This document shows, in pieces, positions 4,569-36,534 of a DNA stretch of 64,000 bases; positions within the stretch are counted from its first letter, which is position 1; each line of letters opens with the position of its first letter. A model generated the notes under the pieces. That model saw only the letters and a program-made list of their open reading frames with translations. It ran no database searches and was not told where the DNA came from. Position numbers and translations under genes: made by a program. Source of the DNA: an uncultured Blautia sp. (lineage in GTDB: Bacteria; Bacillota; Clostridia; Lachnospirales; Lachnospiraceae); contig URVB01000011.1 of NCBI GenBank assembly GCA_900551075.1, positions 34,752 through 98,751 on the forward strand, in the 5' to 3' direction.

Positions 4569-5399
4569 GTGAACATCAAGTCTATAACGGTTCTAACGAA
4601 AGATACGCAGGGGATTTATGTCCTGTCGGTGCCTTTGGCAGAAAGGGATAAAGATATGTATTACATAGCAATTTGTGATGACGATTTGAATTTTATAGCA
4701 TATATAAAAAAAATGATTATTAAAACAGGAATTGCAAAAGTTAAAGTAAAATTTTACGAGTATTCTTCCGGTGAAGAATTGGTTGCTAACCTGGAGCATA
4801 TGCTACGCTGCGATTTATTATTATTAGATATGAAGATGAAGCAGTTAGATGGGAATGAAACAGCGAAGCAGTTTCGTCGTATTTATCCAACTGCGATTTT
4901 GGTATTTTGTTCTGGTTATTATCTCCCTACAATACGGTGCTTTGAGGTACGACCTTTCCGTTATCTTCTCAAAAATTTTACAAATAAACAGCTATTGATT
5001 GAGATGAAAACAATTGTTAAGGAAATGATTGCACATGTATCAGAGCCTTTTATTATTGGCAGTTACTATCATAATATTATAAGACTTAAGCCTTCTGATA
5101 TACTATATATAGAAATAGCAAAAAGAGGAAGCCGAATACATATATACCCGGATATGTTAGAACATGATTTTGAACAAAAAATTATAGCAAAAGAAAAAGT
5201 TGCTGATTTATACGAACAGTTAAAAGCATTTGGTTTTGCTTATGCTCATAACAGTTATATAGTAAATTTGAAATATATTGTGAAATTAACGCCTACTGAA
5301 TTGCAGTTACAGGATGGTACGGTTTTATCCGTTTCCCGATCCAAGACAAAAAGATTAAAACAAGAATTTATAGAAGCATTGGATAAGAAATATAAATAG
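4569..5399 (+). CDS. LytTR-family response regulator (second copy, heads the biosynthetic operon)
   Basis: Receiver domain (YYIAICDDD, LLLLDMKM) plus LytTR domain (FIIGSYYHNIIRLKPSDILYIEIAKRGSRIHIY, AYAHNSYIVNLKYI). The ORF-track start is GTG at 4569. ATG at 4656 (MYYIAICDDD, preceded by AGGGA) is the more likely start. Confidence 0.7.
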   Translation: MNIKSITVLTKDTQGIYVLSVPLAERDKDMYYIAICDDDLNFIAYIKKMIIKTGIAKVKVKFYEYSSGEELVANLEHMLRCDLLLLDMKMKQLDGNETAKQFRRIYPTAILVFCSGYYLPTIRCFEVRPFRYLLKNFTNKQLLIEMKTIVKEMIAHVSEPFIIGSYYHNIIRLKPSDILYIEIAKRGSRIHIYPDMLEHDFEQKIIAKEKVADLYEQLKAFGFAYAHNSYIVNLKYIVKLTPTELQLQDGTVLSVSRSKTKRLKQEFIEALDKKYK

Positions 5400-5585
5400 G
5401 GAAAAGCATGAATATATCAAGATTAATAAAATATTACTGCAACAAAGGATTGTTATAAAACAGAAAAATAAAGAATTAAAATATACTGCAAAAACGTCTC
5501 AAAAAAATACAGAATTTTCCCAATATATTGCATGTTAAAATAAATGGTAATAAGATGAGTTAAAAATAAATGGAGGTGTCTAGTT

Positions 5586-5855
5586 TTGAAAAAAACAGAG
5601 GTTATTGAAAAATTAAAAAAAATCATAGCAAAAAGTATGGAATTGGAAAGTGACGGCAACGAGATAGAGGGAAGTGATCTTATATTAGAATTAGGAATAA
5701 ACTCTGTAGATGCACTTGAAATACTCATATGGGTAGAAAATGAATTTGGTATCCAGATAGAGGATGAAGACTTAAACGCAGATCTTATTACTTCGCTTGA
5801 TAATCTTTCGAATTATGTTCTTTCAAAAATGGAAGATATGAAGAAAAGTAATTGA
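5586..5855 (+). CDS. acyl/peptidyl carrier protein
   Basis: 89 aa, acidic, with phosphopantetheine-attachment motif LGINSVDALEIL. TTG start with GGAGGTG 8 nt upstream. Confidence 0.7.
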   Translation: MKKTEVIEKLKKIIAKSMELESDGNEIEGSDLILELGINSVDALEILIWVENEFGIQIEDEDLNADLITSLDNLSNYVLSKMEDMKKSN

Positions 5856-5864
5856 GGTGCGGAT

Positions 5865-6785
5865 GTGAATGTGAGTCTGATCATACCTACTTATAATAAA
5901 AAGACCCGCCTGGCAATTATGCTGCAGTCGATTCGCAGGTTGAAATATGATAAGGACCTGGAAATAATTATAGTAAATGATGGCTCAAATGATGGTACGC
6001 AAAAGCTTGTGGAGGATTTTTGCCAGAATGTAAAATTAGGAGATGGAATGCATATAAAGTTGATTAGCACATCTAATCAGGGCAGATCGAAGGCAAGAAA
6101 TGTAGGAATAAAAGTGGCTGGTGGAGAATTGCTCATATTTACGGATGATGATCTTATCTTGAGCGACACTTTTGTTATAAATCATGTAAAAGAACATTTG
6201 GCATTGGACACTGCAGTTGTACATGGTCAAATATTAAGCCTTCCACAACTCAAATTTTTGGAGAATCCTGCCACAGGCCAGCAGTATGACGGAACATTGG
6301 CAAGTGAAAGAATGAGGCAATATTGTATTACACCGGATATGTTTGGTGAAGGGAGTATTCATCATTATCTTCAACATAATTCCAGAATCGGTAAATTTGA
6401 GAAGGATATAAGAGCGCTGTTTGAGCATACATCTGTTCATGATTCTTATATCCGTTGGATCGGGTTTACGGGGGGAAATGTATCCATAAGGAAGAAAAAT
6501 ATACCCATGGGTAATCTGTTCGATCCCGCGATGGGGAAAATTTGGGGATGTGAGGATTTGGAAGCTGGGTACCGTTTATTTCTAAATGGTATGAAATTTC
6601 TGTATGCACCTGCAGCCTGTAATTACCATATGAATCATTTCAGGGAGACATCTGTCAGTGAACATCGAGCTTCATTTAAATATTTTTATGACAAGCATAG
6701 AAACAAGGCAATAAAACAACTGGAAAAATATTTTGACAAAGATATTTCCACTTTGCTGGAATGGAAAAAGAGTTTAAATGAATGA
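5865..6785 (+). CDS. family-2 glycosyltransferase
   Basis: N-terminal GT-A signature LIIPTYNK...LEIIIVNDGSNDGT and a DXD-type motif (TDDDLI). Confidence 0.75.
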   Translation: MNVSLIIPTYNKKTRLAIMLQSIRRLKYDKDLEIIIVNDGSNDGTQKLVEDFCQNVKLGDGMHIKLISTSNQGRSKARNVGIKVAGGELLIFTDDDLILSDTFVINHVKEHLALDTAVVHGQILSLPQLKFLENPATGQQYDGTLASERMRQYCITPDMFGEGSIHHYLQHNSRIGKFEKDIRALFEHTSVHDSYIRWIGFTGGNVSIRKKNIPMGNLFDPAMGKIWGCEDLEAGYRLFLNGMKFLYAPAACNYHMNHFRETSVSEHRASFKYFYDKHRNKAIKQLEKYFDKDISTLLEWKKSLNE

Positions 6786-7593
6786 AAATATAATCATACA
6801 AAAGACAAGCGTTGAAGAAATACCTATCTTGTTTGTAAGACAAGATAATGCCGAAAGGAAAGAGGCTATTTTTGTACTTCATAAATTGTTATGTGATAAG
6901 ACCAGCGAATTGCCTTTGGCCTATGAATTGGCAAAAGAGGGCTATTTCGTAATTATTATGGATATCATGGGACATGGAGAAAGGAATACGCTTAAAGAGC
7001 ATAAGTACGATTTTCAAAATATGTTTTATGATGTGCGAAAGACAGTTGAAGATATAGGGAAAGTACTTCAGTATATACGGGATTCTGGTGAGAAGAAAAT
7101 TTCTTTAAACCATACAGGCGTAGTTGGTACATCTTTTGGTGCTTCAATTGCATTAATCGCAGGATATATGCTGAAGGAAATAAGTTATGTAGCCTGCCTT
7201 ATTGGTACATGTAATTTAAGGTACATCATAGAAAATAGAACTTTATGTGTATTCCGTCCGTTTTCACTTTCAAAAAATGTAATTGATTATGATAAAGTCA
7301 TTGATGAAATGGAAGAATTGGACTGCTTAAAAAATTACAATTCCGATAATCTAAAGCCGATGCTATTTCTGGACGGGAAGATAGATATGACAATTCCATA
7401 TAAGGAAAAAACTGAGTTTTACAGGGAACTTGAATCTATATTTTTGAAAGCTGGCAGAAAGGAGGATATCACATATCAATTTTATTCCAATACGGGACAT
7501 AAATTAAATGATGATATGATACATACCTTATTAGTATGGCTTAGGCATTTAAAACGGAATGTATCGGCAGAAAGGAAGTTTGAGAAGGATTGA
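6778..7593 (+). CDS. alpha/beta-hydrolase fold protein (possible thioesterase/esterase)
   Basis: GxSxG nucleophile elbow GTSFGAS, 271 aa, start overlaps the preceding gene. Confidence 0.6.
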   Translation: MNENIIIQKTSVEEIPILFVRQDNAERKEAIFVLHKLLCDKTSELPLAYELAKEGYFVIIMDIMGHGERNTLKEHKYDFQNMFYDVRKTVEDIGKVLQYIRDSGEKKISLNHTGVVGTSFGASIALIAGYMLKEISYVACLIGTCNLRYIIENRTLCVFRPFSLSKNVIDYDKVIDEMEELDCLKNYNSDNLKPMLFLDGKIDMTIPYKEKTEFYRELESIFLKAGRKEDITYQFYSNTGHKLNDDMIHTLLVWLRHLKRNVSAERKFEKD

Positions 7594-8579
7594 ATGAATC
7601 AACAAAGCTATTGACATTAATAAATGGATATAAAATATCAAATGCTTTCTTCTTGGCGGTTGAACATGGTTTGTTTGATTTTATAGATGGAAAAACGGAT
7701 CTATATGAAATTGCCGACCTCACAGAAACAGATGCAAGAGCACTGGAAATTATGTTGAGATTATTCGCTACCCTAGACCTGATTGAAGAGAAGCAGCCAT
7801 ACCGTTATAGTTTGAAAGAAGAGTATAAGAAGTTCCTGAAAAGTGATTCTATAAACAGTTATGTACCGTTGATCAAGTTGGAAAATTATTTATCTGAATT
7901 CCATACAAGTAAAAAAGCAATGGAACATTCCTTAGTTACAGGTACCGGGGAAGACTTATTTAATGAAAACAGCAAAGAAAATAAAGTTGGCATCTATGGA
8001 CAGGCCATGGACAATGGAGGAAGGTTTTCCTCTATGTGTATAGCGAGAGAGTTCCTTGGCTTAAAAGGCGGAAGGATATTGGATGTCGGGGGCGGTGTGG
8101 GAACCAACGTTATTCAGTTATGTAAGATGAATAAAACAGTTGATGTAGTCATCCTAGAGAAAAAAGAGATGGAGGATGCGTGTGTAAGTAATATCCATAA
8201 AAATAATCTGAATAACCGCATTCAGTTTAGAGAAGCTGATTTGAGAACTGTTACTATAGAAGGCCAGTATAAGGGAATTATTGTATCAAATATTCTGCAC
8301 CTGTTTAATGAAACTACCAATAAGCAATTATTAATGAAATTGGCATCCTGTTTGGAGAAGGATGGAATAATCGTATTTCATGACTTTTTTGTTGGGGGTG
8401 GTTTTTCACAGAAATTCATAGCTTCGATTTACTCGTTAGATTGGCTGATGCATGGTTCATATTTCTGCCTTCGTCCAGATGAATTGAAGTTATTGGTAGA
8501 ATCATACGGATTGAAAGTTGTAAAAAACAGGTATTATGAGAACATTCCAACTTCAATCATTGTAGCAAAAAAACCGTAG
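7590..8579 (+). CDS. class I SAM-dependent O-methyltransferase with N-terminal dimerisation domain
   Basis: Motif I ILDVGGGVGTN. N-terminal winged-helix-like dimerisation region typical of small-molecule O-MTs. ATGA start/stop overlap with the upstream gene. Confidence 0.7.
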   Translation: MNESTKLLTLINGYKISNAFFLAVEHGLFDFIDGKTDLYEIADLTETDARALEIMLRLFATLDLIEEKQPYRYSLKEEYKKFLKSDSINSYVPLIKLENYLSEFHTSKKAMEHSLVTGTGEDLFNENSKENKVGIYGQAMDNGGRFSSMCIAREFLGLKGGRILDVGGGVGTNVIQLCKMNKTVDVVILEKKEMEDACVSNIHKNNLNNRIQFREADLRTVTIEGQYKGIIVSNILHLFNETTNKQLLMKLASCLEKDGIIVFHDFFVGGGFSQKFIASIYSLDWLMHGSYFCLRPDELKLLVESYGLKVVKNRYYENIPTSIIVAKKP

Positions 8580-8604
8580 CATAATAGATAATGGATGGAA
8601 CAAT

Positions 8605-10155
8605 ATGAAAATGTTTATTATGGGATTGGATGGGGCTTCTTATCCACTAATATGTAAGTTTGTGAATGAAAATAAACTCCCCAATTTTAAAAAGCTATTA
8701 AAGGATAATAAGTTAAAAAAACTTATTTCCACTATTCCTCCGCATACGGCACCAGGATGGGTATCAGCATTTACCGGGGTACAGCCGGGGAAACATGGAA
8801 TATATCAGTTTTGGGATACACAGGCGGAAAGTTATTTAGGAAAGTTTATGGGGAGTAATGACTATGGTGTTGTTCCAGTATGGGAAATACTAAACCGCTT
8901 TGGCGTAAAGACCGGCCTTATTAACATACCGATGACTCATCCCCCGGAGAAGATTAATGGTTTTATGATGACCTGGCCTTTGTCTAATACATTGCGGTAT
9001 TCATATCCGGACCATTTATTACTGGATATAGCAGAGCATAACGGTCACTATGCATCGGATTTGAATCTTATGTATACGGGGGATGATAGTTATATTGAAA
9101 AATCGTTGGAAGTAACTAGGAAAAGGTTGCAGGCTGCAAAATATCTGATAAAGGAAAAAGAGTGGGAGCTGCTCGTCTGCGTTTTTACTGAAATTGACCG
9201 GATTTCACATTATTATTGGCACGACATGGAGCAGAGTCCTTCCAAATCAGAGGATGCCAAATCATTGTTAAGGAGCCATGCGATTGAAAAAATATATAGA
9301 GAGACAGATAAAGCGCTTGGAGAGATTCTCGAAATACTTACGGAAGACACATTGTTTTTGGTTATGTCTGATCACGGGTTTAGAAGAGGCGAATTCGATT
9401 TTTATATTCAGTCATTTCTGATGGAACATTCTATGTTGTATTTAAAACCGGCCGGACTTATTGCGGAGGAGGAAAGGCGATGCCTGAAAAACTCATGGTT
9501 TGCATGTATGGATAAAGGACAAGAATATTATGTGGACTGGTCGAAGACTATTGCATATATGGCATGTCCGGGATCTTACGGGGTAAATATCAACCTTCAG
9601 GGTCGTCAAAAGAAAGGGATTGTTAAAGCAGAAGAATACGAACGGGTAAGAAGTCAGGTTATTGCATGCATCAGTTCCGCAACGTTACCCGGAACGAATA
9701 TTCCCATGTTTGAACAGGTGGTCAGAAGAGAAGAGATTTATCACGGAGGAAGGATTAAAGATGCACCCGATATTCTTATGATTCCCAGTAGCTACGGTAT
9801 TATGGTGCACCATAAGATCGTGCCGGGAACTCTGTACGGAAGACCGGAACAGAACGGACTTCATGACAGAGCAGGGATTTTGGGATTATATGGAAAATCT
9901 ATAAATTATAAAATAATGAAAGAAGATATATACCTGGAAGATATTGCCCCAACTATATTAAATTATTTTGGTCTTGCCAAAGGTGATTATATGGATGGAG
10001 CATCAATATGTAATTTTAACCGGGGTGCACTTATTCCTTGGGAATATCCTTTAGAGGGATTAGAACGTTATAGCCAGGAAGACAGTATTTCCGGGTATAC
10101 GGAACAAGAGAAACTGGAAGCAGAAGAAAAGCTTAAGGCTTTAGGTTATTTATAA
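8605..10155 (+). CDS. alkaline-phosphatase-superfamily protein, type I phosphodiesterase/nucleotide pyrophosphatase-like (paralogue 1)
   Basis: N-terminus FIMGLDGASYPL followed by TIPPHTAPGWVSAFTG, matching the NPP/PF01663-type metal-site and Thr-nucleophile blocks. No TM segments. Confidence 0.55.
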   Translation: MKMFIMGLDGASYPLICKFVNENKLPNFKKLLKDNKLKKLISTIPPHTAPGWVSAFTGVQPGKHGIYQFWDTQAESYLGKFMGSNDYGVVPVWEILNRFGVKTGLINIPMTHPPEKINGFMMTWPLSNTLRYSYPDHLLLDIAEHNGHYASDLNLMYTGDDSYIEKSLEVTRKRLQAAKYLIKEKEWELLVCVFTEIDRISHYYWHDMEQSPSKSEDAKSLLRSHAIEKIYRETDKALGEILEILTEDTLFLVMSDHGFRRGEFDFYIQSFLMEHSMLYLKPAGLIAEEERRCLKNSWFACMDKGQEYYVDWSKTIAYMACPGSYGVNINLQGRQKKGIVKAEEYERVRSQVIACISSATLPGTNIPMFEQVVRREEIYHGGRIKDAPDILMIPSSYGIMVHHKIVPGTLYGRPEQNGLHDRAGILGLYGKSINYKIMKEDIYLEDIAPTILNYFGLAKGDYMDGASICNFNRGALIPWEYPLEGLERYSQEDSISGYTEQEKLEAEEKLKALGYL

Positions 10156-10165
10156 AAGGAGATTT

Positions 10166-10801
10166 ATGTTTAGCCCATATACAGGAAAGATATATTCAAA
10201 TCAGGAAGTATTGGAGGCAGCCGGGAAGTATCACGGTCAAATTCAAGTAATAAAACATGTAAATAAATATAAAAATGCTGCTAAGTCGATTGCTGAAGGA
10301 AAAATTATCGGTTGGTTCCAAGGCAGGTCCGAGGTTGGGCCAAGGTCACTGGGGAATCGGAGCCTGTTGGCAGATCCGAGAAATCCACAAATGAAAGATA
10401 TTATAAACTACAGAGTAAAATTTAGAGAGGCTTTTCGTCCATTTGCGCCATCTGTACTGTATGAATATCAACAAGAATATTTTGATCTGGATATTCCATC
10501 TCCTTATATGCTGATGGTGGCAGATATCTGGCCTGAGAAACGGGAACAGATTCCTTCTGTAACCCATATAGATGGAACCGGGAGATTGCAGACGGTCGTA
10601 AAGGGTATGAATCCTGTTTACTACGAACTCATTCATCATTTCTATAAATTAACGGGTGTTCCGGTTTTATTAAATACTTCGTTTAATGTGAATGGAGAAC
10701 CGATTGTGGAAACGCCAGATGACGCAATCAAATGTTTCCTGCATTCGGATTTTGATGAACTTTATGTAGAAGACGTATTGGTAACAAAAATAAAGAATTA
10801 G
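10166..10801 (+). CDS. carbamoyltransferase C-terminal (YrdC-like, carbamoyl-adenylate-forming) domain as a stand-alone ORF
   Basis: Contains GRSEVGPRSLGNRSLLADPR, FRPFAPSV, THIDGTGRLQTV and LNTSFNVNGEPIVETPDDAI, the conserved blocks of the NodU/CmcH/TobZ C-domain. Confidence 0.7.
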   Translation: MFSPYTGKIYSNQEVLEAAGKYHGQIQVIKHVNKYKNAAKSIAEGKIIGWFQGRSEVGPRSLGNRSLLADPRNPQMKDIINYRVKFREAFRPFAPSVLYEYQQEYFDLDIPSPYMLMVADIWPEKREQIPSVTHIDGTGRLQTVVKGMNPVYYELIHHFYKLTGVPVLLNTSFNVNGEPIVETPDDAIKCFLHSDFDELYVEDVLVTKIKN

Positions 10802-10817
10802 CAGAAGAGGAAAATAT

Positions 10818-11819
10818 ATGTATATTCTTGGATTAGGCGGATCGAATCATGATTTTTCAAGTTGTCTTATAAAAGATGGAGAGATACTGTCCATCATTGA
10901 AGAAGAAAGAATCACAAGAAAAAAGCATGGAATAGGTCTTGGTGTCAGCTTGGCGAAAGGATTATCTGTAAAGTATTGCTGTGAAGCAGCGGGAATAGAA
11001 TTTGGTGATATTGATCTTGTGATAGGAAATGAAATTTTAAATAAAGTTATGTACAGGAGAATGCAGCAAGAGGTGATACTAATTAATCACCATCTTGCAC
11101 ATGCTGCCAGTTGCTTTTATCCTTCACCGTTTCAGGATGCTGCAATATTAGTGGCGGATTCTGTAGGAAGCAAAAAATTAGATAGAGGAGAATGTCTGTA
11201 CGAGTCTGTATCTTTTGCAGTAGGGAATGGGAATGAAATTCATATTAAAGAGAATATTTCGGGCAGAAATATGAAAGAGACGGATCTCATTGAGAATTCC
11301 CTTGGGATTTTTTATTCGGTTATAACGCAGATCATTGGCTTTGGAGAACACCAGGAAGGAAAGACAATGGGACTGGCGCCTTATGGAACAAATAAATATT
11401 ATCATTTGATGAAACAGCACATCAGATGTATCGGAGATGGAAGAATAGAAATGAAAGAGGAAGACATAAGACAGTTGTTCACTTACAAAGATATCATAGA
11501 TACTGCAAGCGAAAATAAAAAGGCGGAAATAAAAGCAGACTTTGCATATGCGGCACAGCAGGTTTTGGAAGAATGTATGCTGTATTTATGTAGACATCTG
11601 AAGAAGCTGACAAACAAGAAAACATTGTGTCTGGCCGGTGGAATTGCCCTGAATAGTGTGGCTAATTATAGAATTTATAAAGAAAAGATATTTGAACAAA
11701 TATTTATACAGCCAGCCTGCGGGGACAATGGGACATCGATCGGAAGTGCGCTTTATGGACATTACGCAGTTATGGGACAAAAGCGTAATGTTGGAAGGAG
11801 AGACAGAGGTGAATTATGA
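10818..11819 (+). CDS. carbamoyltransferase N-terminal (Kae1/ASKHA-like) domain as a stand-alone ORF
   Basis: MYILGLGGSNHDFSSCLIKDGEILSIIEEERITRKKHG, HHLAHAASCFYPSPF, ILVADSVGS and QPACGDNGTSIGSALY match the NodU/CmcH N-domain. Confidence 0.7.
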   Translation: MYILGLGGSNHDFSSCLIKDGEILSIIEEERITRKKHGIGLGVSLAKGLSVKYCCEAAGIEFGDIDLVIGNEILNKVMYRRMQQEVILINHHLAHAASCFYPSPFQDAAILVADSVGSKKLDRGECLYESVSFAVGNGNEIHIKENISGRNMKETDLIENSLGIFYSVITQIIGFGEHQEGKTMGLAPYGTNKYYHLMKQHIRCIGDGRIEMKEEDIRQLFTYKDIIDTASENKKAEIKADFAYAAQQVLEECMLYLCRHLKKLTNKKTLCLAGGIALNSVANYRIYKEKIFEQIFIQPACGDNGTSIGSALYGHYAVMGQKRNVGRRDRGEL

Positions 11820-13099
11820 AAAAATTGTTTGTCATATCTTTTGAAGGGTTGAATTATAAACTGTTAACAGAATTTATGGAGATGGGAAATTTACCTAATT
11901 TTAAAAGAGTATCTATTGAAGGCGGTCTTGAAGAGATAAATTGCAGCAGAATTCCATATGAAGCGTCCGGCTTGGTGAGTGCCCTCTCAGGTAAGGAGGA
12001 TTCTGAACACGGAGTGTTTTCTTATTGGCGTACCCGAAACCGTGATTACCGTCCGGAGGTATATCAGTCAGAGGATGTTAAGCATCATATGTTCTGGAAC
12101 CAGAGATTCTGTAAGGGATATAGGGTTGGAATAGTCAACGTTTTTGGAACTCATCCGGTTTATAAAGTAGACGGAGTACTGATAAGTTATGCTATGAATC
12201 GCACATTGAGGTATGCTTTTCCGCCGGATTTAATGAGAAGGCTTACAAAAAGCGGATTTGGTTATGTGCAGGATATGGGGGCATTTTATAAAAATGACGG
12301 AAAGGAATCTTTGCTCAAGCAAGTCATCAAGGTGGAAAAGATGAGGCACGCAATATGTCAGGAACTCTACAAGGATGATTTGGATGTATATGTCATAAAT
12401 TATACCTGCATTGACCGTGTCTGCCATTTCTTCATGGATGAGCTAAAAGATGATGCAATGCCACTGGAGGAAAAAGCCGTCTATAGAATGTATCAGCTCA
12501 GCGATGAGATACTGGGAGACATACTTCAATATGTTGATGCACATGGCAGTGAACTCATTCTCTTTTCATCTGTAGGTTTTGGAGAACTGGAGAAATTTGT
12601 GGAGATTAATCCTTATTTGGAAAAAGAGGGATTCTTAAAAAGAGTGTCGGAGCGTGGCATTGATTTTGATCATACGCTGGCATTTGAGGCACCTCAGGGA
12701 GTTCATGGCATTAATATTAATACAGAAGATTTTTATGCCAGAGGAATTGTAAAAGCTGATAATTACAATATTGTTTTAAGTGAAGTTGCAGATGCTCTTA
12801 GACAGATGATAAATCCTTATAATAAAAAACCAATGTTCGCACAAGTAGCTAAAGGGAAAGAATTTTATCAGGGAAACAAGGAAGCTCCCGATTTGATACT
12901 GGAGCCTTATGACTGGAATTATCTTCCCTATGGAGATAATTACTGGGCTGATATCGTAGGGCGGCATAATCAAACTGGATGGCATAGGAATAAAAGTGTT
13001 TGGGGAAGGATGGGATACCATATGAATCAGGAAGCCTTTCAACAAGTGAGCTGTTTAAAAGATATTTACCGGGAAATAGAAAGAACAATTCTTATTTAA
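11816..13099 (+). CDS. alkaline-phosphatase-superfamily / NPP-like protein (paralogue 2, divergent active-site positions)
   Basis: N-terminus LFVISFEGLNYKLL..LPNFKR parallels paralogue 1. By-eye alignment puts Glu/Ala where paralogue 1 has the Thr nucleophile. Confidence 0.5.
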   Translation: MKKLFVISFEGLNYKLLTEFMEMGNLPNFKRVSIEGGLEEINCSRIPYEASGLVSALSGKEDSEHGVFSYWRTRNRDYRPEVYQSEDVKHHMFWNQRFCKGYRVGIVNVFGTHPVYKVDGVLISYAMNRTLRYAFPPDLMRRLTKSGFGYVQDMGAFYKNDGKESLLKQVIKVEKMRHAICQELYKDDLDVYVINYTCIDRVCHFFMDELKDDAMPLEEKAVYRMYQLSDEILGDILQYVDAHGSELILFSSVGFGELEKFVEINPYLEKEGFLKRVSERGIDFDHTLAFEAPQGVHGININTEDFYARGIVKADNYNIVLSEVADALRQMINPYNKKPMFAQVAKGKEFYQGNKEAPDLILEPYDWNYLPYGDNYWADIVGRHNQTGWHRNKSVWGRMGYHMNQEAFQQVSCLKDIYREIERTILI

Positions 13100-13106
13100 G
13101 TTTAAT

Positions 13107-13871
13107 ATGAAGGAGATATTTATGAGTAATACAGAATCTCATAAAAGGGTGGCGTTTGTATCAGGCAGTACGGCCGGAATTGGGTTAGCTGTAGTAAAAG
13201 CGCTGTTGGAAGAAGGGTATACGGTAATCGGAAATTCAAGAAAGCGAAAAGAAGAATTAAATCATGAGTTTGGACAATTGCTCGACCAATCACCCAATTT
13301 ACAGTACATTGAGGGAGATGTAACGAGAGAGGATGACACAGTTTCCATATTTACGAAGATAAAGAAGTATTTTGGGCGTATTGATATTTTGGTTAATAAC
13401 GTAGGAGCAACACAGAAGAAACCGCTGCTAAGAATATCCGGGAAGGAATTTGAAGAGAGTCTCAGACAAAATTTAATGGGAGCATTTTATTGTACGAAAC
13501 AAGCAATCGGTATCATGATGATACATAAATACGGGCGAATTATTAATATTAGTTCTATGGCTGGCGTTCATGGACTTGCGTTTGAAGCCGGTTATTCTGC
13601 ATCTAAAGCGGGACTAATCGGATTTACGAAGGCAGTTGCAAAAGAGTATGGTAATAAGGGAATTACATGTAATACGATTGCTCCCGGGATTATTCATAAA
13701 ACAGATAGCCATGAGAAAGAGGTTGTTCGGTCGGGTGCGCTTTCAGCAATTATTGTAAAACGAACGGGACGAGCTGATGAAGTGGCACATTCTGTAATAT
13801 ATCTTGCGTCGGAGCGGGCCGGTTACATTACAGGCGAAACAATAGAAATTAATGGTGGTTTATTTATATAA
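13107..13871 (+). CDS. short-chain dehydrogenase/reductase (FabG-like ketoreductase)
   Basis: Cofactor motif GSTAGIGLA and catalytic S...YSASK. Confidence 0.75.
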   Translation: MKEIFMSNTESHKRVAFVSGSTAGIGLAVVKALLEEGYTVIGNSRKRKEELNHEFGQLLDQSPNLQYIEGDVTREDDTVSIFTKIKKYFGRIDILVNNVGATQKKPLLRISGKEFEESLRQNLMGAFYCTKQAIGIMMIHKYGRIINISSMAGVHGLAFEAGYSASKAGLIGFTKAVAKEYGNKGITCNTIAPGIIHKTDSHEKEVVRSGALSAIIVKRTGRADEVAHSVIYLASERAGYITGETIEINGGLFI

Positions 13872-13891
13872 TAAAAGAGAGGTAAATACTT

Positions 13892-14989
13892 ATGAACAAA
13901 GAAAAGAAAAAAGTATTGTTTACAAACTTGATGATTAAAGAGGACACTTGTGATTCTTTTTGTAAATACTGCTATCATCGTGACGAAACAAAATCAACAG
14001 ATACATATGCTTATGACTGCAAATTGAAGATCAATATTGATAAAGCAGTAAAGTTTGCAACGACATATTTTAATAGCCCTATTATTAAGATATGTGGGGG
14101 TGAAATCTTTCTGATGTCTAATCTTGAGGAGTTTGTTGTGGAACTGTTAAAACATTTCTCCTATGTATTGATTCAGACGAACGGCCGACATCTGAATGAT
14201 CAGAATTTAAAATGGATTATTGCGTTGAAAAGGGTGATGCTTCAGGTTTCGTTAGACGGGCATGATTTGGAGATGAATGCCTATCGCTTTGAAAAAGCGG
14301 AAATTATGGAGAATATTCTATATGCAATAGAAAAATTAAAAGCAAATGATGTGTATATCGAGCTTACCTGCGTCTTAAATAATAAAAATACAAAGCGATT
14401 TGATGAATACGTGAAATATATGAGGGAACTACCGGGAGGCAGGGCGAGAAATACATTAAAAATCACACCAATTCTTATTATTGATAAAGAGAATTTGTTT
14501 AAACCTTGCAAGGAAGATCTGAAAGCAATTGATGGCATTATTAAGGATTATGAGAAATATGCTGATGTTTTGCCTCCTAAAAAATATATGGAGATGCTGA
14601 ATAAAGTAATGCATGGGGAGACAATTAAATACCAATGTTTTAATCCGATTGTAAGTCTTAACATGGTGAATGATGGAAGAGTTAAAAGTTGCACGAATGT
14701 GTTGCCGGAAAATGTTCTGAATATCGGAAATATGTTTGAAGACGATCCGGAGGTAATTTTGAAAAGATATGGAGACACTAAATTTCAGAAATTATTACTC
14801 TATACAAAACAATGGGTGCCAATTTGTAAGAATTGTTTCAACTTCTGCAGTATTTATAATCTATATCTAAACGATACAATTTCATTGGATGAGCTCTGTA
14901 ATAATAATTATATGTTTAATATACCAGAAGTCAGACAACGGCTACTGGAATTGCACGATATGATTGATGAAGCCAAAATCAGAGTTTAA
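13892..14989 (+). CDS. radical SAM enzyme with C-terminal SPASM/twitch-like cysteine cluster
   Basis: CDSFCKYC (Cx3Cx2C), GGE motif ICGGEIFL, C-terminal CKNCFNFCS and other Cys pairs. Confidence 0.7.
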   Translation: MNKEKKKVLFTNLMIKEDTCDSFCKYCYHRDETKSTDTYAYDCKLKINIDKAVKFATTYFNSPIIKICGGEIFLMSNLEEFVVELLKHFSYVLIQTNGRHLNDQNLKWIIALKRVMLQVSLDGHDLEMNAYRFEKAEIMENILYAIEKLKANDVYIELTCVLNNKNTKRFDEYVKYMRELPGGRARNTLKITPILIIDKENLFKPCKEDLKAIDGIIKDYEKYADVLPPKKYMEMLNKVMHGETIKYQCFNPIVSLNMVNDGRVKSCTNVLPENVLNIGNMFEDDPEVILKRYGDTKFQKLLLYTKQWVPICKNCFNFCSIYNLYLNDTISLDELCNNNYMFNIPEVRQRLLELHDMIDEAKIRV

Positions 14990-15154
14990 TCATCATTATT
15001 AAAAATTACATAGTACTATCTCGGGATTCGGAATGCCATTAGTCGAACATATAAAAGTGCTAATAAATCGGTAACTTTTATCAGAAAAAAACTGCTTATA
15101 AACAATAGATGAAAAATTTCCAGAGATTATATATACAGTAAGGGGGAGAAAAAT

Positions 15155-15955
15155 ATGGATCACATGAAGCTATTAGAGAATGAGAGCCTTTACATTATAC
15201 GAGAAGCGTTCAGCCGCTGCAGGAATTCCGGGATGTTATGGTCCATTGGAAAAGATTCAACAACACTTCTGTGGTTGATCAGAAAAGCGTTTTATGGAAA
15301 AATTCCTTTTCCCATTATCCATATAGACACTGGGTTTAAATTTAAAGAGATTTATGAATTCAGAGATTATTATGCAAAAAAGTGGAATTTAGATCTCATA
15401 GTATATAAAAATATGGATGCAATAGAGCGGGGGATGCATCCGGATTATGGCAAGTTGGAATGTTGCACACAACTGAAAACAAATGCGTTGAAGCAGGTAA
15501 TAGAACAAAAAGGATTAGATGCAGTTTTCTTAGGAATTCGCAGAGATGAACATGGAATAAGAGCAAAGGAGCGTGTATTTTCTTTGCGGGATGAAGAATT
15601 CGAATGGAATTACAAGGCACAATCTCCAGAGTTTTGGAGCCAGTATAAGACAAGGGCTGGAAGCAAAGAGCACTTGAGGGTTCATCCGATACTGGGCTGG
15701 ACGGAACTGGATATCTGGAGTTATATAGAGAAAGAAAAAATTCCATTTGTGGACTTATATCTTGCCAGGGATAATCAAAGATACCGGAGTATTGGATGTG
15801 AAACCTGCTGCAATCCAGTTGTTTCTACAGCAGATTCTGTGGAAAAGATTATTTGTGAATTGCAGAACACCAATATATCGGAGAGGAGTGGAAGGGCTCA
15901 GGATAAAGAATCCGATTATATGATGCAAAAATTGAGATCACTTGGATATATGTGA
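15155..15955 (+). CDS. cysD: sulfate adenylyltransferase subunit 2
   Basis: LENESLYIIREAF...MLWSIGKDSTTLLWLIRKAFYGKIPFPIIHIDTGFKFKEIYEFRD closely parallels the CysD/NodP N-terminal PAPS-reductase-fold blocks. Confidence 0.8.
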   Translation: MDHMKLLENESLYIIREAFSRCRNSGMLWSIGKDSTTLLWLIRKAFYGKIPFPIIHIDTGFKFKEIYEFRDYYAKKWNLDLIVYKNMDAIERGMHPDYGKLECCTQLKTNALKQVIEQKGLDAVFLGIRRDEHGIRAKERVFSLRDEEFEWNYKAQSPEFWSQYKTRAGSKEHLRVHPILGWTELDIWSYIEKEKIPFVDLYLARDNQRYRSIGCETCCNPVVSTADSVEKIICELQNTNISERSGRAQDKESDYMMQKLRSLGYM

Positions 15956-15971
15956 AGAAGAGAGGATATAG

Positions 15972-17210
15972 ATGGAAAAAGAAAAACTAAAAATCGTGAT
16001 AGTAGGTCATATTGATCACGGTAAGTCAACTTTGATTGGAAGATTATTATTTGATACAAATTCTATTACCAGGGATAAGATTGAGGAAGTAAAGAAAATA
16101 TCTGAACAGGCAGGTCAAAAATTTAATTTTGCATATTTACTGGATTATTTGCAGGAAGAACGGAATCAGGGGATTACGATTGATACGACACAGATGTGTT
16201 TTAGTTCTGAGAAAAAGGATTACGTAATCATTGACGCTCCGGGACATGTTGAATTTATCAAAAATATGGTAACAGGAGCTTCCCAGGCGGAATTGGCTAT
16301 TCTGATTGTAGATGCGCTGGAAGGTTGCAAAGAGCAGACAAAAACACATGCATACATTCTATCCATGCTCGGGATAAAAAATATTATCGTAGCTGTGAAT
16401 AAAATGGATCTTGTTTCATATGAAGAAGAAGCGTTCTTAAGAATAAAAAGAGAACTGGATGAGTTCCTATCCACGCTGAATCTGACAGTGAATTGCTATG
16501 TTCCCGTATCTGCACTGGAAAAGGATAATGTGGTAGTTAAATCGGAGCAGATGGATTGGTATGGTGGGAATACGCTGCTTCAGTGTCTGGATACTTTTAC
16601 AAAACCAATAGCAGAGTTAAATAAAACAGTTCTGTTCCCCATACAGGATGTCTATCGCATTGAAGAAAAGCGTATCATGGTTGGAAGATTAGAGTCTGGA
16701 ACCTTAACAACAAATGATGAAGTCACGATTCTTCCATCCAATGTTAAGACCCGGATAAAAACGATTGAAAAATTCATGGAGAAGACTGCCAAAGGTCTTA
16801 CTGGTGAATGTATTGGCATAACGACAAAGGACTCTGTGTTTATGGAACGGGGCCACATTGTATGTACGGATGAGAGTAATTTAGCAGTTACGGATTCCTT
16901 TCAAGCAAAATTATTCTGGATTTCATCGGAAAAGCTTCGCATAGGAGAAACGGCTAAAGTGCAGTGTGCAACGCAGGAGTCGTCTATGGAAATAAAAGAA
17001 ATAACCAGTAAGATAGACGCTTCTACTTTACAAAGTGTTGAAGGTGACGCAGATATTATAAAACCACTTGAAGTATGTCAGGTTGTTATACATACTAAAA
17101 ATCCACTTGTTGTAAGTGATATAAATGAGCTGATTGCAATAAAAAGAATCGTTATTCTGAAGAACGATACAATATGTGGTGGCGGGATTATTACGAATGT
17201 GAGCGTGTGA
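15972..17210 (+). CDS. cysN: sulfate adenylyltransferase subunit 1 (GTPase, no fused APS-kinase domain)
   Basis: GHIDHGKSTLIGRLL P-loop, DAPGH and NKMD GTPase motifs. 412 aa, so the CysC domain is absent. Confidence 0.8.
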   Translation: MEKEKLKIVIVGHIDHGKSTLIGRLLFDTNSITRDKIEEVKKISEQAGQKFNFAYLLDYLQEERNQGITIDTTQMCFSSEKKDYVIIDAPGHVEFIKNMVTGASQAELAILIVDALEGCKEQTKTHAYILSMLGIKNIIVAVNKMDLVSYEEEAFLRIKRELDEFLSTLNLTVNCYVPVSALEKDNVVVKSEQMDWYGGNTLLQCLDTFTKPIAELNKTVLFPIQDVYRIEEKRIMVGRLESGTLTTNDEVTILPSNVKTRIKTIEKFMEKTAKGLTGECIGITTKDSVFMERGHIVCTDESNLAVTDSFQAKLFWISSEKLRIGETAKVQCATQESSMEIKEITSKIDASTLQSVEGDADIIKPLEVCQVVIHTKNPLVVSDINELIAIKRIVILKNDTICGGGIITNVSV

Positions 17211-17211
17211 T

Positions 17212-18489
17212 ATGGGAAGAAAGCAATTCTTATTAGGCATTGACGGTTTGCCCTATAATCTTATCCAAAAGTTTATAGGGGATTATGGAATGTATAATCT
17301 AAAGGAACTGTTAAACAGAGGGAGTTGTAAAGCGATTAATTCTGTTTATCCCGTGATTTCATCGGTTGCATGGACAAGCTACGCAACAGGTCAAAACCCT
17401 GCATATCATAATATCTTTGGCTTTATCGATAGACAGCCCCGGCCATTTTCTATTGAGATACCGACTGCAAGACAGCGCCGGGGAAAAACGATTTGGCAGA
17501 AGCTTTCGGAAGCAGGAAAAAAGGTAATCGTAATGAATGTGCCTTTGACTTATCCACCCCAGAAAATAAACGGTATTATGGTATCTTGTTTTTTGAGTCC
17601 TAATTTAGACAAAGCATCTTATCCTCAAGAAATCAGTCAGTATCTGAAAGACCGGCATTATATTTTGGATGTAGATGCGAATTTGGCAAGAAAAGATAAG
17701 ATGCAGTTTATCATAGAGCTGATTCGCATTATGAAAACACGTTTTCAGGTCTGCTTTGAACTTATTGAGAACGAAGAGTGGGATTTCACACAATTACATA
17801 TTATGGAAACAGACAGATTGTTTCATTTCTTATGGGATGAGCTGAATGATGTCAGTAAAAACAAATATTCTCCACTTATAAAAGAGTTTTTTGCAGTCCT
17901 GGATCAGAATATTGGGGAAATGTGCAGGAGACTGAATAATTGTTCAGGAATCACATTCCTGTCGGACCATGGGTTCTGTGGAATCAAGTATGAAGTTCAG
18001 ATGAATCTCTGGCTGGAGGAGTTGGGTCTGTTGAAATTTAATGAGGGAGGACAGAAAGGGTTTAGGAGTTTGCATGAGGAGTCAATATGTTATTCACTAT
18101 TGCCAGGCAGATTTTATATCAATTTGGAAGGCCGGGAAGAAAAAGGGGTGGTAAAAGAAGAAGATTACATGGATACATGTAGGATGATAAAAGAAAAGCT
18201 TTTGTCTATGAGAGATCAGGATGGTAATAATGTGATTGATCGAGTTTATTTCAAAGACGAAATTTATAGTGGTCCTTATCTGAAAGATGCTGCAGATATC
18301 ATTGCTCATCCTGTAGACGGTTATGACTTGAAAAGCGGGTTTGGTGAGCCGTATGTGTTTAGCAGAGGACATCTCAACGGAATGCATACATATGAAAATG
18401 CAACAGTATTTTCAACCGATTTAAATTTGAATGATGTTTATGCCATTACAGATATTTCTGCACGGTTAATGGAGGTAATGGACGGATGA
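17212..18489 (+). CDS. alkaline-phosphatase-superfamily / NPP-like protein (paralogue 3)
   Basis: LLGIDGLPYNLIQKF...VYPVISSVAWTSYATG resembles paralogues 1 and 2. Start overlaps the cysN stop. Confidence 0.5.
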   Translation: MGRKQFLLGIDGLPYNLIQKFIGDYGMYNLKELLNRGSCKAINSVYPVISSVAWTSYATGQNPAYHNIFGFIDRQPRPFSIEIPTARQRRGKTIWQKLSEAGKKVIVMNVPLTYPPQKINGIMVSCFLSPNLDKASYPQEISQYLKDRHYILDVDANLARKDKMQFIIELIRIMKTRFQVCFELIENEEWDFTQLHIMETDRLFHFLWDELNDVSKNKYSPLIKEFFAVLDQNIGEMCRRLNNCSGITFLSDHGFCGIKYEVQMNLWLEELGLLKFNEGGQKGFRSLHEESICYSLLPGRFYINLEGREEKGVVKEEDYMDTCRMIKEKLLSMRDQDGNNVIDRVYFKDEIYSGPYLKDAADIIAHPVDGYDLKSGFGEPYVFSRGHLNGMHTYENATVFSTDLNLNDVYAITDISARLMEVMDG

Positions 18490-27141: not shown

Positions 27142-28735
27142 AATTGCATTGATTGTAGTATTGGGAGGAGATTTGGTCCGTTCTGCGGAACACGTTGGAA
27201 TTGGATATATAGCATCCTATTTACGGAAGTATAATTTTGAAGTAGATATCTATGAAGTAACGGACATATTTGATCAAGAACAGTACAGTGGACTATTAGA
27301 CAAGGGATATGGTTTAGTTGGGTTTACGACGACCTGTATTACTTTAAAACCAATACTTGAAATGGCAAAAATATTAAAGACATATGATCCCCGGATAAAT
27401 ATTGTATTTGGTGGACATATGGCTACATTTACCGGGACGGAAATCCTGGAAAAGTATATGCAGGTTGACTACATTATATACGGTGAAGGAGAAATCACAT
27501 TTCTTGAGTTAGCTAAGAAATTGGAGAACGGGGATGGGATGGAAGCAGTAAAAGGGGTGGCATACCGGGATGGAGAAGGCATTGTGAGAAAAAATGCTGA
27601 TCGTCAGCTAATCTGTGATTTGGACATGCTTCCTTATCCTGCAAGAGACCAATTTGAAACGAATCAAAAAAATACGCAATATATAAGAATTTCCACAAGC
27701 AGGGGTTGTTATGGAAGCTGCGCATTCTGTAGCTCCTTTGCAGGCAGGAAACAACCTGGGGCACGATGGAGGGGGAGAAGTCCGGCGAATGTTGTTGATG
27801 AAATCAAATATTTGACCGAAAAATATGATTTTCATACATTTGATTTTGTAGACTCCACGTTTGAAGACCCCGGACCGATTGGAAAGCGCAGGATTCAGGA
27901 AATCGCAGAACGATTGATCGAGAGTGGCGTTCATATCTATTATAATTGTTGTTTCCGAGCTGAGAATTGGAAAGAGGAGGATCGTGAACTTCTGAAACTT
28001 TTGGTAGAGTCGGGGCTGGAAAAAGTAAATATCGGGTTTGAAGCCGGAAACGATAGAGGGCTTAAAATTCTTCATAAAAGAGCCAGGATGAAAGACAACT
28101 GGCGGGCAATTAAGGTATTGAAAGAATTTCCGGAAATTTATTTAACGTTTGGCTTTATTATGCTACATCCTTATTCGTGTAACCAGGATTTATACGATAA
28201 TGCTCAATTTTTGCATAGAACCGGAATCGGGCAGGTAATACGGCACTATTTCTGGCAGTTGGAGGTTTATCCGGGGACATTGATGGAAGAGAAGCTGATT
28301 AAGGATGGATTACTTGCAAAGGATTATGATATTGCAGATGGCATGTACAAATATGTATTTGTGCATGAAGAAATGAATTTTTTTGCAAATGCTTTTAAGA
28401 GTCTGCTTGAACTAAAATCTGTATGGGATTTTGAGATTTTTGATATTGTTATCCATACATTTATTACCAGGCTTAGGAGAAAATACAGGAATACAGAAAT
28501 CTATTGTGATATTGAAAACTTTCGGATGTATGTAGAGAATGTCAGGAAAGAGATTGCTGACTATAACTTTGAATTTTTCATAAAGCTTTGGGAGCACAAA
28601 CAAGGATATCATCTTGAAGCCGAAAAGTGTGAACTGGATTGTTTTATCAGGGAAAAGATAAAAATAATAAAGAAACATCAATACCAATTAGGGCACTTGA
28701 TATTGAGAACAGGCAGAAACCTAATCAATAGATAG
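27128..28735 (+). CDS. B12-binding-domain radical SAM enzyme (class B rSAM, methyltransferase-like)
   Basis: N-terminal cobalamin-binding-like Rossmann domain, then RGCYGSCAFCSS (Cx3Cx2C). Confidence 0.65.
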   Translation: MDTIKIALIVVLGGDLVRSAEHVGIGYIASYLRKYNFEVDIYEVTDIFDQEQYSGLLDKGYGLVGFTTTCITLKPILEMAKILKTYDPRINIVFGGHMATFTGTEILEKYMQVDYIIYGEGEITFLELAKKLENGDGMEAVKGVAYRDGEGIVRKNADRQLICDLDMLPYPARDQFETNQKNTQYIRISTSRGCYGSCAFCSSFAGRKQPGARWRGRSPANVVDEIKYLTEKYDFHTFDFVDSTFEDPGPIGKRRIQEIAERLIESGVHIYYNCCFRAENWKEEDRELLKLLVESGLEKVNIGFEAGNDRGLKILHKRARMKDNWRAIKVLKEFPEIYLTFGFIMLHPYSCNQDLYDNAQFLHRTGIGQVIRHYFWQLEVYPGTLMEEKLIKDGLLAKDYDIADGMYKYVFVHEEMNFFANAFKSLLELKSVWDFEIFDIVIHTFITRLRRKYRNTEIYCDIENFRMYVENVRKEIADYNFEFFIKLWEHKQGYHLEAEKCELDCFIREKIKIIKKHQYQLGHLILRTGRNLINR

Positions 28736-30591: not shown

Positions 30592-30652
30592 CTGTTAAGA
30601 ATGTGAAATAGATAAATAAAGAAGAAGTAAATTTAAATTAGAAGGAGACACA

Positions 30653-31633
30653 ATGCTCAATTTATCTTATGTAAATTATTATATACCGGAAATGTATGTT
30701 TCCCTTAAAAAAGTATTAGAGGAAAGCACAAATTTCTCTTTACCACCTTCTTACGCTACTTATACGGATTATAGTAATGCACTGAAAAAAGAAACACATT
30801 TGGATAAGATCTCTGTTATGGAAAAAGAGAAGTTGCTTGAAGAGTCTGTAAAACTAGTGGAACAATTTCTTTATGAAACAGGAATTAATCCTGATTATAT
30901 TGCCGGTGTGGTTCATACAGATCCAGTTCCATTTAATGCTATTGTAAATAATAATATCAGCATTCTGCATTATATTATAGAAAAATTTAAATTAAAAAAT
31001 GCAGCAGCATGTATACTGCAGCAACAATGTACTGGATTTATTATGTCCTTTGCCCTGGCGGAAGGTATGCTTAGAGAAGGCGAATATCTTCTCATACTTT
31101 CGTCAAGTTGTATTGATTCACTTAGGTTTCGTAATTTGGGTTTTACCTGCATGGGTGATGGACTAGGATTGGCTGCGGTCTCTAAAAAACCTTCAAAATG
31201 GAAGATTGTCGATATGATTGCTAAAACATCGGGGAAAAACACATACAGAGTTGGCAATGGCAAGGATGCTATAGTTTCAAAGGATCGCATGGAGATTATA
31301 AAGCAAGGTGTACATGTAATAGAAGAATTATTAAAAGGAAATCAGGTTGATGCAAAGGAACTCTATAAATTTGTGCCACAAAATATTAATTATACGTTAT
31401 ATCAGTTTATATATGCGAGAATGCTCGGAATTAAAGAAGAGGCTATGTATGTGCAAAATATTCCGAATGGCGGACATGTTGGAGATGTTGATTTGATTAG
31501 AAATTTGACAACGTTAGAGAAGGAAGATAACATTCCGAATAATTCCTATGTTCTAATATATGGACTTGGCTCAAATGGTCTTGACATGTCCTATGCAGCC
31601 GCTCTGCTAAAATATAATATTTCGGAGCAATGA
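30653..31633 (+). CDS. KAS III (FabH)-like thiolase-fold protein
   Basis: NAAACILQQQCTGF corresponds to the FabH active-site Cys block. C-terminal NIPNGGHVGDVD and IYGLGSNG correspond to the FabH His/Asn and GFGGG regions. Confidence 0.5.
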   Translation: MLNLSYVNYYIPEMYVSLKKVLEESTNFSLPPSYATYTDYSNALKKETHLDKISVMEKEKLLEESVKLVEQFLYETGINPDYIAGVVHTDPVPFNAIVNNNISILHYIIEKFKLKNAAACILQQQCTGFIMSFALAEGMLREGEYLLILSSSCIDSLRFRNLGFTCMGDGLGLAAVSKKPSKWKIVDMIAKTSGKNTYRVGNGKDAIVSKDRMEIIKQGVHVIEELLKGNQVDAKELYKFVPQNINYTLYQFIYARMLGIKEEAMYVQNIPNGGHVGDVDLIRNLTTLEKEDNIPNNSYVLIYGLGSNGLDMSYAAALLKYNISEQ

Positions 31634-31689
31634 AAAAAATAATGGGATTTGAGAAATCTATACCAATGGCATGCACAGAAGTCTGACTG

Positions 31690-33572: not shown

Positions 33573-33586
33573 GAAAAAGGTTTTAT

Positions 33587-34369: not shown

Positions 34370-34388
34370 AAGGGCAATAGAAAGATAT

Positions 34389-35423: not shown

Positions 35424-35582
35424 ATATAAGTCGTTTGTTGTACTTAGAACGCACTCATTTTAAACTACGTTAGAGTAATGACCAATATGGTATATATAGC
35501 AATTTGAGGAGGCTCTCAGAAGAAAGGAGATACTGTTTGGAAGCAATATTTTATTTTGCTTAATATATAGCAGGAAACAATT

Positions 35583-36434: not shown

Positions 36435-36534
36435 AATTACGGTACGAGGATTTTGAAACCTGAATCTCTCATCAAAAAAATATTAAATGAAAGGTTGGTG
36501 AAAAGTTGAGGCAAAGTCTGCTCGACGAATCGAA

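Follow-up and report, generated by a model that had tools for sequence, protein, structure and literature searches.

The class III O-carbamoyltransferases (NodU/CmcH/TobZ type) characterised to date are all single polypeptides, with a Kae1-like domain at the N-terminus and a YrdC-like domain at the C-terminus (PMC9633730, PMC6022934). In these fused enzymes, a channel or cavity of ~20 Å joins the two active sites (PMC6022934). HypF has the domains in the order YrdC-like then Kae1-like and also uses carbamoyl-AMP chemistry with internal channelling (PMC6022934). Here we describe a locus at which the two domains are encoded by separate neighbouring genes, open reading frames (ORFs) A and B, in a 64-kb stretch of DNA from an uncultured Blautia sp. 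(contig URVB01000011.1, positions 34,752 to 98,751; the whole stretch is called the window below). In the t6A (threonylcarbamoyladenosine) modification of tRNA, TsaC (YrdC/Sua5) and TsaD (Kae1/YgjD) are likewise separate proteins, and threonylcarbamoyl-AMP (TC-AMP) diffuses between them.

An earlier note on this DNA had described the pair as what looked like a functional, two-subunit, permuted carbamoyltransferase, with the C-terminal domain encoded first. Reading of the ORFs, Pfam searches, and alignment with TobZ agreed with its coordinates, its domain assignments, the separateness of the genes, the 16-bp gap between them, and the C-first order. The features are as follows.

10166..10801, + strand: ORF A, 211 aa, with an ATG start, an AAAGGAG ribosome-binding site, and a TAG stop
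10802..10817, + strand: intergenic spacer of 16 nt, carrying the ribosome-binding site of ORF B (GAAGAGG)
10818..11819, + strand: ORF B, 333 aa, with an ATG start and the GAAGAGG site

The two ORFs lie in different frames and each has its own Shine-Dalgarno sequence. The 16-nt spacer is too short to hold a terminator, and the gene downstream of ORF B starts with an ATG at 11816 that overlaps the stop codon of ORF B. Apart from this pair, no second copy of either domain (N, Kae1-like; C, YrdC-like) and no fused copy was found within the 64-kb window.

We consider, with a probability of roughly 75%, that the products of ORF A and ORF B together make up a class III O-carbamoyltransferase that is split by nature into two subunits, most likely a TobZ-like heterodimer and probably acting on a mitomycin-like acceptor.

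ORF A matched the Pfam family PF16861 (Carbam_trans_C) over the entire profile (positions 1-170 of 170, E = 2.5e-72), and a search of the PDB aligned it, far beyond chance, with residues 397-572 of TobZ and 387-596 of VtdB. It has the KxR and SxN motifs that belong to the carbamoyl phosphate- and ATP-using YrdC-like domain of class III enzymes; its key residues are K85-x-R87 (K85-F-R87), M115, H134, D136, R140, and T171-S172-F-N174. Three of them, K85, M115, and S172, correspond to K443, M473, and S530 of TobZ, which, according to the PDB titles, were mutated in entries 3vez, 3vf2, and 3vf4. Both ORFs were also checked at the alignment columns with a conservation of 93% or more in 110 fused enzymes; 43 of 45 such columns are unchanged in ORF A (the exceptions are A61S and I67L). 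Its AlphaFold2 model has a predicted local distance difference test (pLDDT) score of 88.9 and superposes on VtdB with a template modelling (TM) score of 0.91 and a root-mean-square deviation of 1.9 Å; across the matching domains of VtdB, TobZ, GdmN, and NovN the TM scores were 0.88-0.91. ORF A is thus predicted to be a stand-alone YrdC-like subunit, a carbamoyl-AMP synthase.

ORF B belongs to PF02543 (Carbam_trans_N; E = 6.1e-41) and aligned, again far beyond chance, with residues 8-353 of the TobZ chain. It contains the HxxxH...D...D metal site and the N-terminal general-base histidine of the Kae1-like domain. The general base, H11, corresponds to H14 of TobZ (probed by mutation, as stated in PDB titles) and H27 of GdmN, and the metal ligands H91, H95, D114, and D303 correspond to H133, H137, D156, and D333 of GdmN, for which the His2Asp2 iron ligands and the roles of the residues have been described (PMC9633730). 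All 31 of 31 conserved columns are kept. As the earlier note had said, both halves retain their conserved blocks; the catalytic residues are all present as well. The AlphaFold2 model (pLDDT 89.8) gave TM scores of 0.79 with GdmN, 0.78 with VtdB, and 0.74-0.76 with TobZ, and of 0.74-0.79 over the matching domains of VtdB, TobZ, GdmN, and NovN. ORF B is predicted to be the stand-alone Kae1-like subunit, a carbamoyl transferase.

The two halves also cover a fused relative almost completely. In the 552-aa enzyme of Paenibacillus xylanexedens (P0205), residues 1-337 match residues 1-325 of ORF B with 47% identity, and residues 341-548 match residues 1-208 of ORF A with 56% identity and no gaps. ORF B and ORF A tile this protein end to end; therefore, the break falls exactly at the interdomain linker. 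Together with the TobZ alignment, this tiling bears out the clean domain boundaries expected for the split.

Both genes are under purifying selection. The ratio of nonsynonymous to synonymous substitution rates (dN/dS) was 0.11 for each of them in an unsaturated pair of homologous loci (L005 and L011). In the comparisons with the window itself, the proportion of synonymous differences was saturated (0.70-0.83), and that of nonsynonymous differences was only 0.15-0.27.

The split recurs widely. The best 120 database matches of ORF A were all stand-alone C proteins (58-76% identity), and 118 of them were 195-235 aa long; some are named by NCBI "carbamoyltransferase C-terminal domain-containing protein", and the databases label the halves by domain only. 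For ORF B we found ~77 stand-alone clusters (316-369 aa, 49-71% identity) and a second set at 42-46%. The fused proteins of ~540 aa from Paenibacillus, Brevibacillus, Fictibacillus, and Ruminiclostridium match ORF B only at 43-49% identity. At least 118 clusters of stand-alone C proteins (~210 aa) and ~100 of stand-alone N proteins (~325 aa) exist in Bacillota. A survey of homologous clusters, as the earlier note had proposed, revealed the same split in many of them.

A scan with domain hidden Markov models covered 84 loci (L001-L084: the two first look-ups and 80 species-representative genome loci). The split was present only in the closest loci, all from Bacillota; the other ~70, from many phyla, had the ordinary fused N-C gene. 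Further arrangements came from metagenome and contig look-ups. Scanning of JGI metagenome contigs added only ~4 split loci (L085, L086, L088, and L089; L087 repeats L009), the rest being ordinary fused genes. In a library of representatives at 50% identity, nearly all of the top 150 matches were fused, so this search is of little use for judging other stand-alone families. Every locus with enough flanking sequence has N and C in the same cluster, as ORF A and ORF B do; the arrangements are the following.

C-N order: the window, L005, L011 (Anaerosporobacter mobilis), L165, and L166
N-C order: L088 and L168
N-C-N order: L001/L007 (Paenibacillus pinihumi), L006/L085, and L009
N upstream of C at a distance: 1.6 kb in L086 and 6 kb in L010
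N ~12 kb upstream of C: deduced from the overlap between L169 and the collinear loci L167/L003 (78-83% nucleotide identity)

Where N and C are adjacent, homologous loci have spacers of -4 to ~73 nt (-4 to 27 nt in most loci), and the relation between the frames is not conserved; both observations speak against a fused protein made by recoding or read-through. None of the 157 fused relatives had C before N. Because the domains are on different chains, the order of the genes has no bearing on structure. What is conserved is the split, and the C-first order in the window is incidental, since gene order is free. The functional two-subunit enzyme proposed in the earlier note is made much likelier than a pseudogene or an assembly error by intactness, selection, and recurrence; its "permuted" part does not hold for the enzyme as such, because C-N, N-C, N-C-N, and distant arrangements all occur.

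In the N-C-N loci, the C gene stands between two diverged N genes, one of ~350 aa upstream and one of ~333 aa downstream. This arrangement suggests that two transferases share one subunit that forms carbamoyl-AMP, or that carbamoylation takes place twice.

Neighbour-joining trees placed all stand-alone C sequences (125 of 125) in one pure clade and all stand-alone N sequences (111 of 111) in another, with ORF A and ORF B inside them. The nearest fused relatives in both domain trees were the ~540-aa enzymes of Bacillales. The trees fit one fission event in an ancestral Firmicute with shuffling afterwards; several fissions or a re-fusion are also possible. In the N tree, ORF B belonged to a large single-N group with both C-N and N-C members (L088 is N-C), and the upstream and downstream copies of the N-C-N loci (N1 and N2) were sister paralogues in a separate group. 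That the C-N pair of the window is an N-C-N arrangement which has lost its first N was rejected, because N1 and N2 are sisters in a clade apart from ORF B.

In the mechanism that we propose by homology with TobZ and GdmN (PMC6022934, PMC9633730), ORF A would convert carbamoyl phosphate and ATP into carbamoyl-AMP, which ORF B would hold at its His2Asp2 metal site. His11 of ORF B would then deprotonate the hydroxyl of the acceptor, which would attack the carbamoyl carbon, leaving the pathway intermediate carbamoylated. The two genes would be co-transcribed and are probably translationally coupled. A TobZ-like A:B heterodimer is the most likely form, so that the labile adenylate would pass between active sites, with free diffusion in the manner of TsaC and TsaD as a fallback. 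The ~20 Å cavity of the fused enzymes leads us to expect a heterodimer, and the tight operon linkage at most loci supports it. The pair would have arisen when a fused Bacillota enzyme of ~540 aa was split in the linker between its domains; the genes would then have been shuffled freely within their clusters and, in some clusters, N would have been duplicated.

The data show the identity of the domains, their intactness, the clean tiling, the conservation, the recurrence, and the variable order, whereas catalysis in trans, formation of the A:B complex, and the acceptor are inferred. Several points weigh against this reading. The acceptor, an intermediate of mitomycin type derived from 3-amino-5-hydroxybenzoate (AHBA) and an aminosugar and modified in a step like that of MmcS, is assigned from gene context and with modest confidence. 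In fused enzymes the labile carbamoyl-AMP travels internally, and a split might cut efficiency. In some clusters 6-12 kb separate N from C, which means that tight translational coupling does not apply everywhere. The monophyly of the stand-alone proteins, and with it a single fission, had weak bootstrap support (C, 56/100; N, 38/100).

Distances of 1.6-12 kb between the N and C genes of some clusters also bear on another possibility, that both proteins are functional without forming one enzyme. ORF A would then be a free synthase of carbamoyl-AMP (or of another acyl-adenylate) whose product is set free to diffuse, or which supplies more than one acceptor enzyme, and ORF B would act independently on any adenylate that it captures, as in the relay of TsaC and TsaD and not as a stable heterodimer. 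The diffusion of TC-AMP between separate YrdC-type and Kae1-type proteins in t6A synthesis is a precedent, and the N-C-N loci, which pair one C gene with two diverged N paralogues, suggest a shared donor-generating module. Carbamoyl-AMP, however, is labile and is channelled internally in the fused carbamoyltransferases and in HypF (PMC6022934), and N and C are adjacent at most loci, with the short spacers that are typical for partners in a complex. We regard the relay as unlikely; it involves the same chemistry as the heterodimer and differs from it in quaternary structure only.

As a bolder and tentative proposal, which we hold to be possible but less likely than not, the YrdC-like protein may be a free generator of carbamoyl-AMP that works in trans with one or more interchangeable Kae1-like transferases, in parallel with TsaC and TsaD. 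The N-C-N loci would then combine one donor with two acceptor-specific modules, and the pair in the window might attach the carbamate to a metabolite of mitomycin type, possibly one that alkylates DNA, of anaerobic gut-associated Firmicutes. The Ble/MRD-like glyoxalase genes of the window and the AlkZ-related gene of the Dorea cluster, both described below, are hints in this direction.

A true circular permutation, with the pair as the remnant of a tandem duplication (N-C-N-C) on the way to a fused C-N chain like that of HypF, is very improbable. HypF does have the YrdC-like and then the Kae1-like domain on one chain (PMC6022934), and the N-C-N loci resemble the intermediate of the permutation-by-duplication model. 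Against it stand the lack of any C-N fusion among the 157 fused relatives, the unconserved spacer length and frame relation, the position of N1 and N2 as sisters apart from the N clade of the window, and the occurrence of close relatives of ORF B in N-C order (L088).

The 3-kb region that includes the junction was found in two independent metagenome assemblies (L170 and L171, one from ENA and one from Logan), with an identical junction and only 4 positions differing from the window. One might suspect an error of sequencing or assembly, or a normal fused gene that was recently rearranged into a pseudogene, because C before N reverses the order of all 157 fused relatives and because draft genomes do carry such errors, as the frameshift-broken N genes of one Paenibacillus pinihumi draft show, but this reading is effectively refuted by the shared junction, the separate ribosome-binding site and start codon of each ORF, the stand-alone homologues of each half in more than 100 clusters, the retained catalytic columns with a dN/dS of ~0.11, and the two-gene layout of isolate genomes (A. 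mobilis L011 and P. pinihumi L007). An assembly rearrangement and a loss of catalytic residues, which the earlier note had named as grounds for abandoning its interpretation, were accordingly not borne out.

The P. pinihumi draft in question is a second assembly of this species (L002, GCA_001312305.1), in which the N genes are present as pieces of 311 aa and of 175 + 143 aa; they are intact in the assembly of DSM 23905 (L001). The broken genes are probably an assembly error, and they caution that some "split" calls in databases are artefacts.

The pair lies within a biosynthetic cluster, annotated with Pfam scans, that probably supplies the acceptor; its genes, and the regulatory genes beside it, are the following.

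4569..49826, + strand: co-directional biosynthetic cluster, ~45 kb
35583-36434: AHBA cassette, 3-deoxy-D-arabino-heptulosonate 7-phosphate (DAHP) synthase
48016-49098: AHBA cassette, 3-dehydroquinate (DHQ) synthase
22859-23329: AHBA cassette, DHQ dehydratase (DHQase) II
23355-24563: AHBA cassette, AHBA-synthase-like aminotransferase
20778-21926: AHBA cassette, GFO/IDH/MocA oxidoreductase
21910-22878: AHBA cassette, ROK kinase
25381-27141: AHBA cassette, HAD phosphatase (RifM-like) fused to a radical SAM domain, 586 aa
18486-19892: MitE-like AMP-ligase (aryl-AMP ligase)
5865-6785: GT2 glycosyltransferase (MitB-like)
24633-25367: PIG-L deacetylase (MitC-like)
13107-13871: short-chain dehydrogenase/reductase (SDR)
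13892-14989: radical SAM protein
7590-8579: O-methyltransferase
8605-10155, 11816-13099, and 17212-18489: three AlkP-superfamily ("Phosphodiest") paralogues
15155-15955: CysD
15972-17210: CysN
36535-37659 and 39903-40937: two BtrH_N-type proteins
28735-30591 and 41048-42865: two stand-alone adenylation-thiolation (A-T) proteins
42993-43454 (- strand) and 47581-47991 (+ strand): two proteins of the glyoxalase/bleomycin-resistance fold (Ble/MRD-like)
1376-2671, - strand: GHKL histidine kinase, immediately upstream of the cluster
2725-3438 (- strand) and 4569-5399 (+ strand): two LytTR-type response regulators, likewise immediately upstream

Carrier proteins and a phosphopantetheinyl transferase were also found with Pfam. 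The top PDB match of the aminotransferase was AHBA synthase (1b9h, 4e-93), 65 bits above the next. NCBIfam named the genes of the cluster no further than generic families. The ligase, carrier, GT2, PIG-L, SDR, radical SAM, and O-methyltransferase genes are of the types of MitE, MmcB, MitB, MitC, MitF, MitD, and the O-methyltransferase in mitomycin assembly (PMC9570651). Matched by enzyme type, the genes of a mitomycin-type cluster (AHBA cassette, MitE-like ligase, acyl carrier protein (ACP), MitB- and MitC-like enzymes, and carbamoyltransferase) are all present, and by this analogy the cluster looks mitomycin-like.

Relatives of this cluster are present in Dorea, Hydrogeniiclostridium, Lachnospiraceae, Anaerosporobacter, and Paenibacillus (L001-L011 and L165-L169), and the gene neighbourhood of the window is also found in L165, L166, L167, L168, and L169. 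A literature search for clusters of the mitomycin or AHBA type among Clostridia or bacteria of the gut returned nothing relevant, which is weak evidence given the thin coverage of subscription journals in the searchable literature. The GC content is 30-41% in the cluster and 46-50% in the flank at 50-64 kb; the rise near ~50000 suggests that the cluster is a horizontally acquired island. In two related clusters (L003 and L167), the HAD protein is encoded by a separate gene of ~220 aa. With the fusion of this protein to a radical SAM domain and the split of the carbamoyltransferase, the cluster shows both gene fusion and gene fission with respect to its relatives.

Two of the three AlkP paralogues flank the carbamoyltransferase pair, the trio neighbours CysD and CysN, and the AlkP-C-N-AlkP synteny is kept in L165 and L166. 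The AlkP-family proteins could have a role in sulfation or desulfation; for example, sulfate might serve as the leaving group when an aziridine is formed, as in azinomycin (PMC9570651). An AlkZ-related gene is present in the Dorea cluster (L167, 1052-1750). That family is linked to self-resistance against DNA crosslinkers, and the mitomycin-binding resistance protein MRD has the glyoxalase/bleomycin-resistance fold. By analogy, the two glyoxalase-fold proteins and the Dorea gene are a hint that the product may be a DNA-damaging agent. BtrH_N proteins are the ACP-dependent acyl or aminoacyl transferases of butirosin biosynthesis; the BtrH_N and A-T pairs suggest that acyl or aminoacyl groups delivered by carrier proteins are added to the product. 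The histidine kinase and the LytTR regulators could place the pathway under quorum-sensing-type (agr-like) control.

If the proposed split enzyme is confirmed, the adenylating and transferring halves of these enzymes are able to work as separate proteins, and the N-C-N loci would be nature's own experiment on the use of a single donor module by more than one transferase. The pair would also provide a modular system for engineering carbamoylation and bear on the channelling of the adenylate. The family of AHBA-based, mitomycin-like clusters is widespread and apparently undescribed in anaerobic Firmicutes, human-gut taxa included, and its product may outweigh the split in importance.

In mitomycin biosynthesis, the carbamate is installed by MmcS, a fused actinomycete enzyme. 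MmcS is a tailoring enzyme in a cluster with AHBA and MitE/MitB/MitC-type genes, as here, and the likeness is one of gene context (PMC9570651). The cluster in the window differs from that of mitomycin in coming from low-GC anaerobic Firmicutes and in having, in addition, CysDN, AlkP-family, and several radical SAM genes.

TobZ, VtdB, GdmN, and NovN share both domain folds, the metal ligands, the general-base histidine, and the KxR and SxN motifs with ORF A and ORF B, and presumably the carbamoyl-AMP chemistry. They differ in being single chains of 570-700 aa, Kae1-like then YrdC-like, whereas ORF A and ORF B are two genes in different frames with C first and so depart from the one-chain N-to-C architecture of class III. 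Many fused enzymes carry an insert of ~25-50 residues after position ~70, which ORF B lacks, and neither ORF has the dimerisation domain of the GdmN type. With the NodU equivalog model (NF041651, cut-off 1000 bits), ORF A scored 123.5 and ORF B 32.4, as homologues that are not NodU orthologues. Closer are the fused ~540-aa enzymes of Bacillales (P0205 and Oceanobacillus profundus L013), whose N domain lacks the insert, as ORF B does; these are single polypeptides in N-C order, with ~3 linker residues between the regions that match ORF B and ORF A. The ORFs of the window agree with the Bacillota pairs of stand-alone C (~210 aa) and N (~325 aa) proteins encoded in the same cluster. Our search of the literature found no description of a split form of secondary-metabolite carbamoyltransferases, and thin coverage of subscription journals makes this weak evidence.

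TsaC and TsaD resemble ORF A and ORF B in being a separate YrdC-fold adenylate former and Kae1-fold transferase, and the folds are recognisably related, with TM scores of ~0.5 for ORF A and ~0.65 for ORF B; HypF was also among these more distant structural matches. In sequence, TsaC and TsaD are only remotely similar to the ORFs. They use threonylcarbamoyl-AMP and tRNA, with the extra partners TsaB/E or KEOPS, whereas carbamoyl-AMP and a small molecule are expected here. ORF B scored 24 bits against the TsaD/Kae1 equivalog TIGR03723 (cut-off 296), and its context is a secondary-metabolite cluster, not tRNA modification. HypF has a domain order equal to the gene order of ORF A and ORF B, but it is one chain with added acylphosphatase and Zn-finger domains, which are absent from the ORFs, and a cysteine of HypE as acceptor. 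The score of ORF B with the hypF model TIGR00143 was 26.6 bits (cut-off 466), and no hyp genes lie nearby. Neither the separation of the two modules, as in t6A synthesis, nor the YrdC-Kae1 order, as in HypF, is conceptually new for the superfamily.

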